In this document: in pieces, positions 1 through 10,420 of the stretch | Numbering within the stretch: the first letter of the stretch is position 1 | Layout of the letters: every line of letters starts with the position of its first letter | Source of the DNA: a bacterium | GTDB taxonomy: Bacteria > UBA8248 | Assembly (NCBI GenBank): GCA_965213685.1 | Contig: CBDBZY010000013.1 | Location: forward strand, 32,001-96,000 | DNA length: 64,000 nucleotides | Direction of reading: 5' to 3' | Notes under the pieces: model-generated | Seen by the model: the letters and a program-made list of their open reading frames with translations, nothing else | What the model was told of the DNA's origin: nothing | The model's database searches: none | Program-made: the position numbers and the translations under genes

Positions 1-2120
1 TCTCCCACCCCGCGCGCCCCGTACGGCCCCGCCCCCTCCCCGCATTCGAGAACGACGGACTCGAACTCCCCGATGTCCGAGGAGGTGGGGATGAGGTATT
101 CGTGAAAACTCTGGGATCGGCAGTCGCCCTCCACCATGGCGACTTCCTCGTGCAGTGCGTAGCCGATGCCCATCACCGCACCGCCCTCGAATTGTCCCTC
201 CACGCTTTGGGGGTTCAGCGCGCGCCCCACGTCGTGGGCGGCGACGTGCTTCAGGAGGTTCACCTCGCCGGTTTCGACGTCGACTTCCACCTCGCTCGCA
301 TGAACGCCGAAGGTGTAGTCCGACCAGCCGCCCATTCCGTTCATGTATCGCTCCGGATTCTCGTATTCATGGCCCGGCATGTTGTAGCCATGCGTGCAGT
401 GGAGCGACTCGCCCATCTGCTTGGCCTCGCCCGCCGCCGCCCCGACGCTCACCCTCCTCTCCGGAGCGGACGCCACCCAGGCCTCCCCGCCCCCGAGGCG
501 CACGTCCTCCTCGGCGGCTTCGAGCAACGAGGCCGCCCCCTTGAGGAGCGATTTTCGCACCTCCTCGGCGGCGCGCTGGACGGCGTGCCCCGCCATCAGC
601 GTCTGCCGGGAGCCCGCGGTGATGCCGGAGAGCGGCGTGGTGGCGGAGTCGGACAGGCGGGTGGAGACCTGCCGGAGCCTAAGCCCCAGGGTTTCCGCCG
701 TGATGCTCTGGAGCGTGGCGCCCTGCCCTGCGCCGATGTCCGGGGCGCTCACGCGCACCACCGCGCTGCCGTCGGGTTCGAGGTGAACCGCCGCGTTCGC
801 GTCGTCATTCGGCCTTCCGTAGCCGGTGATGTTCGCCGCCGCCGCCCGGCCGATGCGCTTGCCCGGGCCCGGCTTTGCGGGTTTGCCCAAAGCCTGGAGC
901 GCGCGGCCCAGGCACCCTTCGAGGTTTGGCTCGTAGGGGATTTTCTGGCCGGTGGGCAGCTCCTGTCCCTTCTGGATGAAGTTTTTTCGGCGCAACTCGT
1001 ATTTGTCCATGCCGATGGCGTCCGCGACCAGGTTCATCTGGTTCTCGTAGGCGAAGCAGACCTGGTTCGAGCCGACGCCGCGCATGGCGTTGGTGATGGG
1101 GTTGTTGGTGAGGTAGCCGTGCGCGCGAATTTGCGCGTTGGGGACGTCATAGGGGCCGGCGGCGATGCACATCGCGCCCAAGAGGAACAGGTTGGATTTG
1201 TATGGATAGGCGCCCGCGTCGCCCACGATGTCCGCCTGCATCGCCGTAATTTTTCCGTCCCGCGTCGCCCCCGTCTTGTACTTCATGTAGAAAGGGTGCT
1301 TCTTCGAGGTGTTGCGGATGCCCTCCTCCCTGCCGAGCACCATCACGGCGGGCCTGCGCGTATGCCAGGTGAGCAGCGCCAGGTAGGGCTCCACCGTCAG
1401 CATTCCCTTGGCGCCGAATCCGCCCCCCACATACGTGCCGAGGTGGCGAACGCGGCTCTGGGGGACTCCCAGGATGGCCGCGACCGCGCGATAGTATTCG
1501 ATGAGCTGCGTGCCGACGCGGATGGTGACGACGCCGTCTTCCTCCATCCAGGAGGTGCCGGAGGCGGGCTCCAGAAAGGCGTGCTCAGCCAGCTGGGTCG
1601 TGTATGTTTTCTCGATCACGACGTCGGCTTCGGCGAACGCGGCGCTCGCGTCCCCGCGCGCGACCTCGAAATCGCACGCCTGCCGCTTCCCGGCGCCCGT
1701 CTCGCCGTGCCGCGTGGTCCACACGCCAGCCTCCGCGTCGATCTCCACCTCGATGGCTGCGATGGCCGCATCGAGCGCCTCCCTCGTCTCGGCGCCCACG
1801 ACGGCGAGGGCGTCTCCCGTGAATTCGATCCGCTCCTCGACCAGCACGGGCTGATGCGGCAGTCCCGGCGTTCCCGAGCCGAAGCGCACGTTTTTGCCGG
1901 GAATGTCCTTCGCGGTCAGAACGGCGGCCACGCCGGGAATCTGTTTCGCCCGCGCGGCGTCGAGTTTTTTCAGGCGCCCCACGGGGACGGGCGTGAACAG
2001 GACGCCGCACTGCAAGGCGCCTGCGGGTATCGCGTCCTCTCCGTAGGGCATGGAGCCATCCGCCTTGGGGATGGAGTCATACCGAACGTTCGACTTGCCG
2101 ATGATGTCGTAATCGGCCAT
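1..2120 (-). CDS. Xanthine dehydrogenase/aldehyde oxidase family molybdopterin-binding subunit (3' end runs off the window)
   Basis: Manual translation from ATG 2120 (RBS GAAGGAG): MADYDIIGKSNVRYDSIPKADG..EHAFLEP..VGGGFGAKG..AMRGVG..DIGAGQ..GSRQT..AHDVGRALNP..VEGQFEGG..GARGVGE. Absent from the ORF track because there is no stop in the window. Confidence 0.93.
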   Translation of the reverse strand, partial: MADYDIIGKSNVRYDSIPKADGSMPYGEDAIPAGALQCGVLFTPVPVGRLKKLDAARAKQIPGVAAVLTAKDIPGKNVRFGSGTPGLPHQPVLVEERIEFTGDALAVVGAETREALDAAIAAIEVEIDAEAGVWTTRHGETGAGKRQACDFEVARGDASAAFAEADVVIEKTYTTQLAEHAFLEPASGTSWMEEDGVVTIRVGTQLIEYYRAVAAILGVPQSRVRHLGTYVGGGFGAKGMLTVEPYLALLTWHTRRPAVMVLGREEGIRNTSKKHPFYMKYKTGATRDGKITAMQADIVGDAGAYPYKSNLFLLGAMCIAAGPYDVPNAQIRAHGYLTNNPITNAMRGVGSNQVCFAYENQMNLVADAIGMDKYELRRKNFIQKGQELPTGQKIPYEPNLEGCLGRALQALGKPAKPGPGKRIGRAAAANITGYGRPNDDANAAVHLEPDGSAVVRVSAPDIGAGQGATLQSITAETLGLRLRQVSTRLSDSATTPLSGITAGSRQTLMAGHAVQRAAEEVRKSLLKGAASLLEAAEEDVRLGGGEAWVASAPERRVSVGAAAGEAKQMGESLHCTHGYNMPGHEYENPERYMNGMGGWSDYTFGVHASEVEVDVETGEVNLLKHVAAHDVGRALNPQSVEGQFEGGAVMGIGYALHEEVAMVEGDCRSQSFHEYLIPTSSDIGEFESVVLECGEGAGPYGARGVG

Positions 2121-2328
2121 GGGCTCACTCCTTCAGCGATGGGGGAGGGGTTCCATGAATCAGGCGGGATTTTGCCAGAATTCCGCCAAATTGAGAAGCG
2201 GACGCAGGATGCGCGCGTCCTCTCGCGGGGAGGATGGGCGATAAGGGCGCGCGCCCATGGACAGGAGATCGTTTGCGGGATATGATTTGCGGGCGTTTCC
2301 TTTCACATATCTCTGAATGGAGAATGCC

Positions 2329-2859
2329 ATGGCGAACGGAATGGGATTTATCGACCCGACGGCGGGCGGGTCGGCCGCGAAAGTGGAGCTGGCGCGGCGG
2401 CCCGCCAATCTTTCCGGCAAGGTGGTGGGGCTCCTGGACAACACGAAGGAGCAGGCGGACATTATCCTGGAAACCCTGGGGAGTGCGCTTCGCGAGCGAT
2501 ACGACGTGGCCCGAGTCGTCGCACTACGCAAGGAGCACTACTCGAAGCCTGCCCCCGATGAGATGATCGAGGAGATGGCGCAGGAGGTGGACGTGGCCAT
2601 CGCCGCACTCGGGGGCTGAGGCTCCTGCACGTTGTGCAGTGTGCACGACACGGTCGAATTTGAGAAACGCGGGGTTCCCTCGACCACCATCATCACCGAG
2701 GCGTTCAAGAACGCGGCGGACTTCCAGTTCCGCGGCAAGGGGATGGAGGGGCACCCATACGTTCAGCTGCCCCATCCGGTCAGCAACCTGCAGCCCGAGG
2801 AGATGCGGGAGACGACGCTGCGGTTCGTGGAGGAAGTGGCGAGCCACCTGAGGGGCTGA
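2329..2859 (+). CDS. UGSC-motif (seleno)protein; TGA 2617-2619 read as Sec
   Basis: ORFs 2317..2619 and 2632..2859 share a frame. The junction reads AIAALGG-TGA-GSCTLCSVHD..EKRGVP (U-G-S-C). SECIS-like hairpin at 2631-2649; RBS GGAG before ATG 2329. Confidence 0.85.
2631..2649 (+). promoter_or_regulatory. Putative bacterial SECIS hairpin
   Basis: GTTGTGCA-GTG-TGCACGAC: 8-bp stem with one GU pair, starting 11 nt after the in-frame TGA; loop begins GU. Confidence 0.65.
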
Positions 2860-6230: not shown

Positions 6231-7427
6231 ATGGAATTCACCCTGAATGAAGAGCAGTTGCGAATCCAGCAGATAGCCAGAAAATTCTCCTACGAAGAGC
6301 TGGCGCCGGTGGCTCCTGCGCGCGACCGCATTCCGGACTGGGAGGAGCGAATGCCGTGGGACCTGACGGAGAAGGCGAGTGCCCTGGGTCTTCGGCAGCT
6401 GCCCTACCCCAGGGAATACGGCGGGATGGACGCCGACGTTCTCTCCTGCTGTCTGGCGGGCGAGGAGCTCGCCGCGGGCGATCTGGGTTTTGCGGTGAAC
6501 CTGGATCAAACCTGGAAGCTCTCCCACATACTGGAAAAGGTGGCGCCGGAGCTTCGGGAGCCCTGGATAAGGCGCCTGTGCGGGGAGCCGAGGTTCCTTG
6601 TCGCGATTTCCATGACGGAAGAGGGGGCGGGAAGCGACCACCAGGGATATTACGATGACCCCTCCGTCGCGCTGTATGCGCGCGCGGAGAAAAGAAACGG
6701 CAAGTGGATCATCAACGGCAAAAAGCGATACATCAGCAACGGGCCCGTGGCCTCGCTGCACGTCCTGGCGGCGAGAACCGACCTCGGCAAGAGTTTGCGG
6801 GAGGGACTCACCGGTTTTCTGGTTCCCAGGGATACCCCGGGAGTATCGATTGGCCACGTGCACGAGAAAATCGGCCAGCGCCTTTCGATGAATTCGGAAA
6901 TCTTCTACGAGGACGTCGAGATTCCCGAGAACCACGTCATCCTGGGCGAGGGGAACATGTTCGAGATCAGGGGCAACCTCCTGGCGATGGGAAAGCCCGA
7001 GGCCGCCGCCACCGCCCTAGGCGTCGGCCGCGCCGCGTTCGAGAAAGCCCTCGACTACAGCCGCGCGCGCGTCCAAGGGGGCGCGCCCATCGCCCGGCAC
7101 CAGGCGATAGAAACCATGCTCGCCGATATGGCGATGAATCTGGACATCGCGCGCACCTATGTCTGGCGCACCGCCTGGGCGGTGGATCATCAAAAGCCGT
7201 ATGATTTCACGCAAGGGTGGAAGTGCAAGATTTTCGCGTCGGAAGTCGCCTTCGAGTGCGCGCGCCTGGGGATGGAAATCTTCGGCGGCGCGGGCATCAT
7301 GCAAGCCGCGCCCATGGAGAAGTATCTTCGGGACGCCAGCACGTTCCTGCATTCGGACGGCACGAACCAGGTGCTGCGGCTCAGAACGGCGCGGGCTTAT
7401 GTGAACGGCGCGGCCATGGCGTTCTAG
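6231..7427 (+). CDS. Acyl-CoA dehydrogenase family protein
   Basis: MEFTLNEEQ after RBS GAGGAGG; SMTEEGAGSD, INGKKRYISNG, RVQGGAPIARHQ, IFGGAG..EKYLRDA..DGTNQV. Confidence 0.95.
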   Translation: MEFTLNEEQLRIQQIARKFSYEELAPVAPARDRIPDWEERMPWDLTEKASALGLRQLPYPREYGGMDADVLSCCLAGEELAAGDLGFAVNLDQTWKLSHILEKVAPELREPWIRRLCGEPRFLVAISMTEEGAGSDHQGYYDDPSVALYARAEKRNGKWIINGKKRYISNGPVASLHVLAARTDLGKSLREGLTGFLVPRDTPGVSIGHVHEKIGQRLSMNSEIFYEDVEIPENHVILGEGNMFEIRGNLLAMGKPEAAATALGVGRAAFEKALDYSRARVQGGAPIARHQAIETMLADMAMNLDIARTYVWRTAWAVDHQKPYDFTQGWKCKIFASEVAFECARLGMEIFGGAGIMQAAPMEKYLRDASTFLHSDGTNQVLRLRTARAYVNGAAMAF

Positions 7428-7452
7428 CGGCCTCTGGGGAGGGACGCTCCGG

Positions 7453-8016
7453 ATGGCGGACGGGCGGCGGCAGGGCGCATTGTTTCATCCGGCGGCTGCG
7501 GTTGCGGCCGCGCGCTGGCTGGAGCGGGTGCGCGCGGAATTTTCTGTCTTTGTGTCGGATGCGGGAATTGCGGAAATCCGGATGCTGGACGGCGTGGAAA
7601 AGCCCCGCGCGGCGCGCCATGCGAACGCGCAATCCACGCCGTTGCGTCGGCGGGCGGCGGAGCAGATACGGGAATACCTGCGCGGTGACCGGAGGAGGTT
7701 TCAGCTGCGGGCGGATCTCTCCTCCCTGTCCCCCTTCATGGAGGCGGTGCTCGGGCAGACGAGAAAGATTCCCTACGGCGAGACGCGCTCCTATGGCTGG
7801 GTGGCGCGGGAGATCGGCAGTCCCGGGGCGTCGCGGGCCGTCGGCCAGGCGTTGCACAGAAACCCCGTTCCGCTCCTCATACCCTGACATCGCGTTATCG
7901 CGGGCTCGGGCGAGCTCGGCGGATTCGCCAGCGGCCTGCCGCTGAAGGCGGCGCTCCTGGCCCATGAGGGGCATGTCGAAATCGCGGGAGGAAGCCATGT
8001 CGAGACCGATGCGTGA
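7453..8016 (+). CDS. ogt: Methylated-DNA--protein-cysteine methyltransferase (Ogt/MGMT), selenocysteine form; TGA 7885-7887 at the active site
   Basis: IPYGETRSYG..ASRAVGQAL..NPVPLLIP-TGA-HRVIAGSGELGGFASGLPLKAALLAHEG. The canonical PCHRV motif has TGA at Cys, and the conserved C-terminus continues in frame to TGA 8014-8016. Confidence 0.88.
7897..7924 (+). promoter_or_regulatory. Putative bacterial SECIS hairpin
   Basis: ATCGC-GGGCTC-GGGC-GAGCTC-GGCGGAT. Upper stem with a G-initiated 4-nt loop 20 nt after the TGA. Confidence 0.6.
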
Positions 8017-8573
8017 TTTTATTGATCGCGTGCGCGAAATCGTCCGGGCGGGCGGGAGCGAGGAGGAGTTGACCGCCCGGGTGGCGGCGCGTCTCGCTCC
8101 GATTCTGGATGCGCCCGACCTGTTGAGCACAGAGCAGCTGCTGGTGAAAAAAGAGGGCTTTACGCTCAACCGAATCCACGTCGAGCCGGATGAGAGCTTC
8201 TCCATCGGCGCCGGCATATGGGACGTGGGACAGACCACCCCGATCCACGATCACGGCACCTGGGGGGTGATAGGCATTTACCGCGGCATGGAGAACGAGG
8301 AGAGTTTCTTGCGCGAGGGGCCCCCGCGAGGATGGCGTCCGCGTCAGGCTCACCCCCCGGGGCAGGCGCCTAGCGGTGCCTGGCGACGTGTTTGTCTGCT
8401 GCACGCAGGACGACGACGTGCACCGCGTCAGCTGCGCCTCGTCCGAGCCTGTGGTGGGCGTCCACGTCTATGGCGGGAACCTCGCCAAAATCCCGCGCTT
8501 CCAGTATGAGGAATCCACCGGCGCCGTGCGCTCGTTTCAAACCGGATGGGACTACGCGAGAATCTCCGTCTGA
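7997..8573 (+). CDS. Thiol dioxygenase (cysteine/3-mercaptopropionate dioxygenase-like cupin); +1 frameshift at about 8317-8325
   Basis: W..GQTTPIHDHGTWGVIG in one frame and PGDV..DDVHRV..GVHVYGGNL in the +1 frame. Removing one base from GGGGCCCCC restores a continuous protein. Confidence 0.8.
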
Positions 8574-8791
8574 TTTCCCCGAACCGATGGGCGCCCCGCC
8601 GCGTAGCGGGGCTCCCCGTTCGTCGAAATGAGGGGACGACGCGGTGGCTTGTTCGGGGGAGTCGTTTTGGGTATGATCGGGATCAAAGTTTGATGTGCGA
8701 AGAGGTTGGTTTCTGAGGACTTCATGCGCCGCCCCCCTCCGAAGGAGTCCCCATGTTTGGAAAATTTGAAGGGGAGGCGGAATCTCCCTCA

Positions 8792-8820
8792 TTGCCCCGT
8801 TCGCCCCAGAATGCTAGGTT
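8792..8820 (+). promoter_or_regulatory. Putative sigma70 promoter (extended -10)
   Basis: TTGCCC-17 nt-TAGGTT with TG at 8812-8813, immediately before the octamer repeat. Confidence 0.4.
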
Positions 8821-8827
8821 GAGCCAG

Positions 8828-8919
8828 GACACCCCGACACCCCGACACCCCGACACCCCGACACCCCGACACCCCGACACCCCGACACCCCGACACCCCG
8901 ACACCCCGACACCCCGACA
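8828..8919 (+). repeat. Simple sequence repeat (GACACCCC) x11.5
   Basis: 11 perfect 8-bp units at 8828-8915 plus a partial GACA. Confidence 0.98.
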
Positions 8920-9003
8920 AGAAACCATAGACGGCTAAACGCCGGATTCGGCAACGACCGTCGCGCCGCTTCCCGCATCATCCTCGGCGATGTTCTCCGT
9001 GTT

Positions 9004-9837
9004 TTGCCACGCCTCCCACCGGATGAAAGGTATGAGGTCGTCATTGCCGATCCGCCTTACAACATAGGCAAGGATTTCGGAAACAACGGCGATGACTTGC
9101 CCATTGACCATTATGTGAAATGGTCGAAAGCGTGGCTGAATCAATGCCTGGAGCGACTCACCGAAAACGGCGTTTTATACGTCTACGGCTTCCCGGAGGT
9201 TCTGTGCCGCGTTGCGGCGCAATATCCCGTTGACGGGCAGCGCTGGCTGGCGTGGCACTATACGAACAAGACTGTCCCCTCCTCCATGTTCTGGCAGCGC
9301 GCCCATGAATCCATTTTGTGCATGTGGAGACCGGAAACCCGGCGGCCGGAACTGGAAATCGATCAGATAAGAGAACCCTACACAAAGTCCTACCTGGCGT
9401 GTGCGGGAAGGAGAAGAGCCGGGACTCCCTCCCGGTTCGGCGCGAACAAAACGACGACGTATGCCGCCCATCCCAATGGCGCGCTGCCGAGGGACGTCAT
9501 CAAGATTCCCGCACTGGCCGGCGGGGCAGGCGCATCCGAGCGATGGTTCATGTGCCATGATTGCGGCGGCGAAGTATTCCCGCCCGGCGAAATCAAGAAC
9601 CATCACGGACACGACATATTCAAGCACCCTACCCAGAAGCCGATGGAGCTGACGCGCCGCCTGCTCTTGTCGCGCATCACCGGCGCATCCGGTCGCCTAC
9701 TCGTTCCCTTTGCAGGTTCCGGTTCGGAATGCGTCGTCGCCCAGCAAATGGGCGTTTCTTTTACCGGAATTGACATGAACCCGCAGTTTGTCCGCTTCGC
9801 GCGCAGATGGCTCCAAAAGGAGCGGGACGGTGTATAG
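9004..9837 (+). CDS. Beta-class N4-C/N6-A DNA methyltransferase (true start lies upstream of 9004)
   Basis: Motif IV DPPY precedes HPTQKP and motif I PFAGSGS. The in-frame upstream sequence RIILGDVLRVL matches the usual beta-MTase N-terminus but has no in-frame start codon. Confidence 0.9.
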   Translation: MPRLPPDERYEVVIADPPYNIGKDFGNNGDDLPIDHYVKWSKAWLNQCLERLTENGVLYVYGFPEVLCRVAAQYPVDGQRWLAWHYTNKTVPSSMFWQRAHESILCMWRPETRRPELEIDQIREPYTKSYLACAGRRRAGTPSRFGANKTTTYAAHPNGALPRDVIKIPALAGGAGASERWFMCHDCGGEVFPPGEIKNHHGHDIFKHPTQKPMELTRRLLLSRITGASGRLLVPFAGSGSECVVAQQMGVSFTGIDMNPQFVRFARRWLQKERDGV

Positions 9838-10420
9838 GATGACTCCGCTGATGCTGCAGAATCTGGGCCGCGAACTTCGCAAGTTCCACGACCAGTTCAT
9901 CGGCGGCAGATGCGCGGGTTGGCAAATGGAGGAACTCCTCGTGCGGGCGATCCAGTCCGACACCAGTCGCAATCATCATGTCGAATGGCGAGAACACGGG
10001 CACGACGACAAGGCGGATATCCGCGTGCGAGCCAACGGGCGTGAATACCCCATCGAGGTGAAATCGGGGCAGGTGAAAAAGAAAACCGGAAAGCTGACTC
10101 TCTCGGGTCATCGATTGGGCCGCTTCCAGGGAGATTTCGGGAAGATCACGGATTATCTGAACGGCAAAATGGCTCATGTCATCTCGCTAGCCCATGAGAA
10201 GCACGAAGACGAACAAGGCCGCCACCATATCTACCGTTTGTATTATATCGAGCCGACGCGCCTTCGGGGGCTTGCGGAGAAAAATTGGGACAAAGTGGGA
10301 GCGCAATTCAAACAGACGAACAGCGATGGCGTGGAGTTCTCGTTGCGGCCTTCCATGAGTTGGCAGATATGGTGGACGATTCCTGTGGGGCAACCGGAGA
10401 AGATTTTCGATTTTGCGTAG
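9830..10420 (+). CDS. Putative Type II restriction endonuclease (PD-(D/E)xK-like)
   Basis: GTG 9830 with RBS AAGGAG overlaps the MTase stop; E...ADI....IEVKSG nuclease-like motif; the region is visibly less GC-rich. Confidence 0.65.
   Translation: MYRMTPLMLQNLGRELRKFHDQFIGGRCAGWQMEELLVRAIQSDTSRNHHVEWREHGHDDKADIRVRANGREYPIEVKSGQVKKKTGKLTLSGHRLGRFQGDFGKITDYLNGKMAHVISLAHEKHEDEQGRHHIYRLYYIEPTRLRGLAEKNWDKVGAQFKQTNSDGVEFSLRPSMSWQIWWTIPVGQPEKIFDFA

Follow-up and report, generated by a model that had tools for sequence, protein, structure and literature searches.

The gene at positions 7453 to 8016 of the 64,000-nucleotide stretch of DNA analyzed here (the window) is predicted, with a probability of roughly 93%, to encode a DNA alkyltransferase of the Ogt/MGMT type whose acceptor residue is selenocysteine (Sec), inserted under the direction of a downstream hairpin and used for a single SN2 alkyl transfer. 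This reading is supported because the UGA codon is kept in relatives, the sequence past it shows no decay, the hairpin is retained with compensatory changes, and selA, selB, selC, and a frameshifted selD are found in the same genome. The features on which the analysis is built are listed in Table 1.

Table 1. Features of the Sec-type ogt locus (positions in the window) and Sec machinery genes elsewhere in the assembly (contig:positions)
Feature	Position	Strand	Basis or remark
Predicted Sec-type ogt/MGMT coding sequence	7453..8016	+	ATG at 7453; 187 codons plus stop TGA 8014-8016; residue 145 encoded by UGA
UGA codon, alkyl-acceptor position of P-[C/U]-H-R-V	7885..7887	+	translation and alignment with Cys homologues
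SECIS-like hairpin in the A-G-S-G-E-L-G coding region	7901..7918	+	RNAalifold consensus, covariation, Sec-versus-Cys control
Acyl-CoA dehydrogenase, conserved left neighbor	6231..7427	+	Pfam Acyl-CoA_dh_N, Acyl-CoA_dh_M, and Acyl-CoA_dh_1 on the orthologue L026:266-1459
Thiol-dioxygenase-like cupin	7998..8573	+	about 191 aa in relatives; frameshifted in the window; ORFs 7964-8509 and 8376-8573
selA	C5:35693-37084		564 bits, over the cutoff
selB	C5:38043-39929		370 bits, over the cutoff
tRNA-Sec (selC)	C44:222261-222353		78.6 bits, over the cutoff
selD	C31:101342-102000 (L010)		172 bits, over the cutoff; pieces in several frames

Domain composition and the acceptor position

With the TGA read as a residue, the frame around the acceptor is ...NPVPLLIP-TGA-HRVIAGSGELGGFASGLPLKAALLAHEG..., and the UGA column coincides with the Cys of the P-C-H-R-V motif in PDB chains 4wxc and 4bhb, the best PDB matches (E ~1e-24). 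Human AGT (1eh6 and 1t38) and E. coli Ada-C (1sfe) are among the other Cys-type PDB matches, and the same codon is aligned with Cys in 82 Cys homologues. The read-through product matches PF01035 (DNA_binding_1), which comprises the DNA-binding and active-site domain of MGMT, over residues 94 to 173 (profile positions 1 to 80 of 81; E 2.8e-31, 107.6 bits against a cutoff of 27), as well as the NCBIfam family TIGR00589 (98.8 bits against a cutoff of 46.4). Since the domain profile is matched across the TGA, the part that follows it is intact and in frame. Both points had been made in a previous sequence-only reading of this DNA, which placed a TGA at the nucleophile codon of P-C-H-R-V and an undamaged, in-frame coding sequence behind it, and the translation and the alignments with PF01035, TIGR00589, 4wxc, and 4bhb bear them out.

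The likeness to the Cys-type Ogt structures extends through a gapless alignment over Y-G-E..A..I-G.P-G-A.R-A-V-G, N-P, P-x-H-R-V, and L-L..E, with an Asn conserved five to eight positions ahead of the acceptor. The difference lies in the acceptor, which is Cys in those structures and predicted Sec here, and in the N-terminal 90 residues, which match no Pfam family. The active-site residues that were checked are this Asn (N137 of human AGT), the His after the acceptor, and the Glu of L-L-x-x-E, the latter two presumably being H146 and E172 of the human protein. In alignment A2 (17 sequences), the corresponding columns N143, H152, and E178 (alignment column numbers) are invariant, and the Asn ahead of the acceptor is also kept in each of the 26 Sec forms retrieved by homology. 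In human AGT, N137 serves as active-site support (PMC4150793).

The acceptor motif itself reads I-P-U-H-R-V and thus holds a nucleophile only if Sec is counted as one. The alkyltransferase-like (ATL) proteins have the MGMT fold with an ordinary, nonnucleophilic residue in place of the acceptor Cys and do not transfer alkyl groups. The gene analyzed here shares with them the lack of a Cys codon at the acceptor position but has no ordinary residue there either: the codon is UGA, followed by a SECIS-type hairpin, in a genome that encodes the Sec machinery.

Authenticity of the TGA codon

A sequencing or assembly error concealing a true TGC or TGT codon deserves consideration, given that indel errors do exist in this assembly (an extra base at position 8317 and a selD gene split over several frames, both described below). 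Positions 7000 to 9000 of the window were therefore aligned with Logan contigs, used in place of raw reads, from four public runs belonging to two studies. Positions 7885 to 7887 are unchanged, with no substitution, in the contigs of all four runs, so that the TGA noted in the sequence-only reading is a TGA, and not TGC or TGT, in these data as well. Over positions 7000 to 8856, the contigs of runs X1 and X2 match the window letter for letter apart from a single gap, and either run may represent the source sample; X4 represents a variant strain (28 other letters and 6 gaps over 1857 bases) in which the TGA is likewise present; and X5, from the second study, contributes a piece spanning positions 7830 to 7950 with no other letters, at a depth of ~4. 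The same TGA is present in 22 independent genomes of the genus. The chance that the codon is an error is practically negligible, and the TGA is neither a sequencing error nor a fresh nonsense mutation.

The same contigs located one genuine fault of the assembly. Base 8317 is missing in X1, X2, and X4, so the window holds a 1-base insertion at this position, which is an assembly error; because of this extra base, the cupin gene downstream of ogt is split over two frames. A separate feature of the region is a perfect tandem array at positions 8828 to 8919, with 11.5 copies of the 8-nt unit GACACCCC. Its summed contig depth is 320 to 580, compared to about 17 to 20 nearby, and the 8-nt unit is therefore widely repeated in the samples or in the genome.

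Conservation in relatives and selection past the TGA

A conventional ORF call ends at position 7887 and yields 144 residues, which is the sole form of this protein in the public protein collection, where a full-length version with C is absent; the Sec-Ogt has been missed by annotation because gene callers stop at residue 144. These facts would also suit a nonsense pseudogene, or a real product that is a 144-residue fragment ending at Pro144, a nucleophile-less DNA-binding protein loosely similar to the ATL proteins. The UGA read-through by SelB is usually inefficient, and with this in mind some truncated product is likely. However, neither a decaying gene nor a functional fragment would be expected to show the pattern found in the relatives, in which the TGA, the sequence after it, and the hairpin (see below) are all conserved.

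In a protein search of genomes, a match with exactly one TGA was found in all 22 genomes of the same genus (67 to 75% identity), in genome G023 from the same family (56% identity), in G025 from the same order, and in all seven genomes of family f4 from the same class. Genomes G024 and G026, and seven genomes related at the level of domain, have Cys-type matches alone. The congener contigs matched by the neighboring acyl-CoA dehydrogenase belong to metagenome-assembled genomes (MAGs) labeled as Nitrospinota or uncultured Nitrospinaceae. Frames extracted from the 30 returned loci have P-U-H-R-V in the genome under study, all 22 congeners, G023, G027, and G028; the position of the TGA was read in these 30 loci, a set that does not include G025 and G029 to G033. 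The same motif is seen in loci L156, L176, L203, L215, L266, L267, and L269, whose records are titled as Nitrospinota, Nitrospinaceae, and Tectomicrobia MAGs, and Sec forms from other genera keep the TGA at the same codon down to 39% identity. The check on relatives suggested by the sequence-only reading thus returned TGA, not Cys, at the acceptor codon in the genome itself and in 22 of 22 congeners, with no Cys-codon revertants among them.

The tail encoded after the TGA is conserved as H-R-V-I-A-G/S-S-G-E-L-G-G-F-A-S...L-K..L-L..E in all loci read except L051, and it carries the H-R-V and L-L-x-x-E motifs that the protein needs. The ogt gene of L051 (G028) stops at a second TGA ten codons past the Sec codon, and the tail of its near relative L049 (G027) is complete; a frameshift or an error of assembly may account for the early stop. 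In a pooled Nei-Gojobori estimate (253 pairs among the 23 sequences of the genus), dN/dS is 0.138 over 66 codons before the TGA versus 0.122 over 27 codons after it. Purifying selection past the TGA equals that before it, and therefore the tail is translated; the decay that a nonsense mutation would have left behind, raised as a possible outcome by the sequence-only reading, is not seen (dN/dS of 0.12). A pseudogene or a 144-residue end product is, on this evidence, extremely improbable, and the reading of the gene as encoding a full-length Sec-Ogt is retained in what follows.

Each of these genomes also has a second alkyltransferase match that is free of TGA. In the genome under study, this is a 360-residue Ada-type protein with a C-terminal P-C-H-R-V motif (G000:C25:14953-15330; L054, positions 1453 to 2535, minus strand), in which a Cys-rich N-terminal domain and an AraC-like middle section precede the alkyltransferase part; every congener carries such a paralogue as well. 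The Sec form is old in this lineage, being distributed across the Nitrospinota genus and related genera beside the Cys-type Ada paralogue.

A conserved SECIS-like hairpin

Bacterial Sec insertion signals, as defined by bSECISearch-type criteria, are stem-loops about 11 to 25 nt past the UGA with a G in the apical loop. Downstream of the acceptor codon of the Sec-ogt gene, a 5' arm CGGGCUC (positions 7901 to 7907), a loop GGGC (7908 to 7911), and a 3' arm GAGCUCG (7912 to 7918) form a helix of 7 bp, with a 13-nt spacer between the UGA and the stem and the loop starting 20 nt after the UGA. A hairpin with a G-starting loop, 20 nt downstream, had been seen in the sequence-only reading, and comparison with relatives adds the RNAalifold helix and compensatory changes to that observation.

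RNAalifold, run on alignment A1 with its 25 Sec forms, gives the 7-bp helix as the consensus. The positions of the helix are paired in 95.8% of 168 cells, versus 27 to 51% when the partners are slid by 1 to 3 columns. Double-sided changes occur in two of the seven pairs, C-G to U-A in four sequences and G-C to C-G in one, and a single-sided change from G-U to A-U occurs in eight sequences; the counted cells are sequences rather than events, so that the double changes may amount to two or three events, and the four U-A sequences may be related to each other. The covariation score is 0.164, compared to 0.101 for shuffles, and was reached by none of the 500 shuffles. The helix overlaps the coding sequence of a conserved peptide, which confounds sequence conservation as such.

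As a control, an alignment-independent rule was defined by its geometry: a contiguous stem of at least 6 pairs with G-U allowed, a loop of 3 to 9 nt whose first or second base is a G, and a start of the 5' arm 8 to 24 nt after the acceptor codon. The Cys control set was retrieved with a Cys-substituted version of the protein, through patterns that contained a Cys codon. Hairpins conforming to this rule follow 62 of the 68 distinct Sec forms (40 of the 46 outside the genus) and 24 of the 83 Cys forms (Fisher p about 1e-10). The stem sequences vary by clade, as in GGAUCC/GGAUCU, GCCGCCG/CGGCGG, and UGCCAAU/AUUGGUA, and the position is constant. Folding energy is uninformative: 100 nt of the gene under study give a z of -0.21 against shuffles, which is not unusual, and minimum-free-energy z-scores do not separate the Sec from the Cys forms (p 0.34). 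For this reason, the significance of the hairpin rests on the relatives, that is, on the position counts and the covariation. An Rfam scan of the window at gathering scores returned no matches, from a library in which the inclusion of SECIS models is uncertain.

Selenocysteine machinery and the meaning of UGA

The genome (7.97 Mb in 71 contigs) encodes the components listed in Table 1; ARAGORN finds no tRNA in the window, and tRNA-Sec lies elsewhere in the genome. The sequence-only reading had named selABCD as the genes to locate, and the result is favorable for selA, selB, and selC, all of which score over their cutoffs, but less clean for selD, which is present and frameshifted in this assembly. 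A six-frame reading of selD reveals an N-terminal G-G-U-G-S-K motif and at least four frame changes. Among the congeners, selD forms an uninterrupted frame containing one TGA in 21 of 22 genomes; the remaining genome, G017, has no match and is 79% complete. We take the frame changes to be assembly errors because the window has already shown an indel at position 8317. Judging from its motif, SelD itself appears to be a selenoprotein in this genome, and it is the only other one seen there; none of the formate dehydrogenase-like (FdhA-like) matches in the genome has an in-frame TGA.

The assembly is larger, at the size given above, than those of the 22 genomes of the same genus (2.9 to 4.6 Mb), and its contamination is given as 3.68%; its proteins also look much more G+C-rich than those of the congeners.

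The UGA codon could in principle be decoded not as Sec, or not only as Sec, with Cys inserted through a mischarged tRNA-Sec or near-cognate suppression, or with TGA serving generally as a sense codon. Other systems are known to insert Cys at Sec codons when selenium is scarce, and an Ogt made in this way would be an ordinary Cys enzyme. However, the genome has a dedicated tRNA-Sec, selA, and selB, as well as the SECIS-type hairpin at this gene, and the lack of Cys-codon revertants described above likewise speaks against such decoding. TGA ends the Sec-ogt gene itself and its counterparts in L025, L044, and L046, and TGA is therefore a stop codon in this lineage. Decoding of this UGA as something other than Sec is highly improbable, and insertion of Sec is the preferred reading.

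Gene neighborhood

The order acyl-CoA dehydrogenase, Sec-ogt, and cupin is found in the genome under study and at the loci of all 22 congeners. The acyl-CoA dehydrogenase is 90% identical in the congeners, and the cupin has a mean column identity of 85%. The cupin start overlaps the ogt stop, an overlap also seen in L257, L266, and L267. The cupin orthologue matches PDB entry 6xb9, annotated as "cysteine dioxygenase type I protein" (E 5e-22), and the 3-mercaptopropionate dioxygenases 3uss and 4tlf (E 3e-20); its match to Pfam CDO_I stays below the cutoff (16 versus 23 bits).

Followed across loci L025 to L047, L176, L203, and L252 to L267, the cupin comes directly after Sec-ogt also in L047 (G023), L203, L176, L266, and L267, the Ogt proteins of the last two being 39 to 50% identical; these loci represent several genera of Nitrospinota and Tectomicrobia. 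In L156, it is located about 3 kb from Sec-ogt, and no cupin is found at the Sec-ogt locus L269. None of the 80 Cys-ogt loci examined has this cupin. This association could reflect a functional link between Sec-Ogt and the cupin and is best treated as a lead, given that the adjacency is lineage-restricted and plain synteny is possible.

Further downstream, positions 9004 to 9837 of the window encode an N6/N4 DNA methylase (PF01555, E 1.2e-24), which is overlapped by a 210-residue ORF with no Pfam match (positions 9788 to 10420). The two may form a restriction-modification pair.

Distribution of Sec-type alkyltransferases

A search with a degenerate DNA pattern for N-P-x5-P-U-H-R-V, using one genome per species, returned at least 112 stretches, from which 80 loci were kept. 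Homology both before and after the TGA marks 47 of these 80 as true MGMT genes, and the other 33 are chance matches. By record title, the taxa with Sec-MGMT among the matches listed include Desulfobacterota-type MAGs, Nitrospirota, Nitrospinota, Tectomicrobia, and Dehalococcoidia, along with Bacillota (Tissierellaceae, Gudongella, and Eubacteriaceae), Planctomycetota, and Myxococcota.

In a tree of 143 active-site segments, 61 of them Sec rows and 82 Cys rows (98 codons, acceptor masked; LG+G4, quick search), the Sec forms fall into 11 clades with 11 state changes, a rough clade count given the short alignment, the pattern-based choice of Sec rows (Asn-Pro required), and the use of the 80 best tblastn hits as Cys rows. 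With shuffled Sec/Cys labels, the mean number of state changes is 46 and the minimum is 37. The gene under study belongs to a 28-row clade (SH-aLRT 89) that consists of its genus, other Nitrospinota, and one Tectomicrobia MAG.

A group of seven loci from Desulfobacterota-type MAGs (L142, L172, L175, L180, L183, L195, and L212) encodes a short single-domain protein of the MGMT family, about 105 to 107 residues long, with a UGA acceptor in the motif N-P-Y-A-P-E-V-P-U-H-R-V-V; the L142 protein scores 77 bits with TIGR00589. Because the UGA acceptor is found in these short single-domain proteins, Sec has entered a second architecture of the MGMT family.

Relation to previously described Sec-MGMT proteins

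The protein analyzed here appears to be a well-supported, real Sec Ogt, and proteins of its kind have featured among the predictions of genome surveys from 2005 onward. The first Sec-MGMT, CHY0809 (ABB14497.1) from Carboxydothermus hydrogenoformans, was reported in that year together with a SECIS stem-loop, under the family name "methylated-DNA-protein-cysteine methyltransferase," and was regarded as a very recent invention confined to one organism (PMC1287953). Two Sec-MGMT sequences were subsequently listed in a survey of the Olavius symbionts (PMC1976440) and one in the GOS survey (PMC2398784), and Sec-MGMT is included in reviews from 2022 (PMC9312934) and 2026 (PMC13188914). The statement in the sequence-only reading that Sec forms had already been predicted computationally was, accordingly, accurate (PMC1287953, PMC1976440, PMC2398784, PMC9312934, and PMC13188914).

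Compared by its published description rather than by direct alignment, the CHY0809 family shares with the gene under study the replacement of the acceptor Cys codon by UGA in a PF01035/COG0350 protein, the stem-loop just downstream, and a Sec machinery in the genome. In contrast to the single organism of 2005, the Sec form is here fixed in a Nitrospinota genus and related genera and is present in at least 47 further genomes.

The same reading had also stated that no biochemical study was known. For the natural form this agrees with the literature, as no biochemical study of a natural Sec-MGMT was found in open-access full text (PMC and bioRxiv); for Sec at this position in general it does not, as experiments with an engineered human AGT carrying the C145U replacement have been described (PMC4150793). 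That protein, produced from a UAG codon in an EF-Tu-dependent manner without a SECIS element, gives ada/ogt-deficient E. coli the same protection from MNNG as the wild-type protein, and the N137A replacement, which inactivates the Cys form of human AGT, does not inactivate its Sec form (PMC4150793). Like the natural proteins described here, human AGT C145U has Sec at the acceptor position; it is artificial and tolerates N137A, and the natural Sec forms nevertheless keep the Asn.

Predicted mechanism and implications

By analogy with the family and with the engineered human AGT C145U, Sec insertion, alkyl transfer, and single turnover can be outlined as follows. The hairpin, 13 nt after the UGA, would recruit SelB with Sec-tRNA(Sec), Sec would be inserted at the UGA, and the 42 C-terminal residues would then be made. 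The selenolate, expected to be deprotonated at physiological pH (with a pKa as described in PMC4150793), would attack the O6-alkyl carbon in a single SN2 step that moves the alkyl group of O6-alkylguanine onto Sec, leaving Se-alkyl-Sec, so that the Sec-Ogt would act once per protein. Faster repair or regeneration of the enzyme, a question raised by the sequence-only reading, and repair at lower pH are speculative benefits of Sec. A variant of this scheme, in which the Sec-Ogt would not be a strict suicide protein and the Se-alkyl adduct, whose C-Se bond is weaker and more reactive, would be removed to allow turnover, perhaps with the help of the presumably co-transcribed cupin, is very unlikely.

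If the predicted single-turnover Sec-Ogt is what the gene encodes, Ogt/MGMT would be among the few nonredox uses of Sec and a stoichiometric one, in which each repair would consume a costly Sec residue. What the present analysis adds is modest: a Sec form fixed throughout a Nitrospinota genus and in related taxa, its wide spread over phyla, and a conserved partner gene. The natural Sec-ogt genes could provide material for comparing the kinetics of Sec and Cys forms, a comparison so far confined to the engineered human AGT. Genus-wide fixation, together with about 11 separate clades in an admittedly weak tree, argues for a real selective advantage and against the 2005 view of a recent accident; this advantage may lie in a permanently deprotonated nucleophile.
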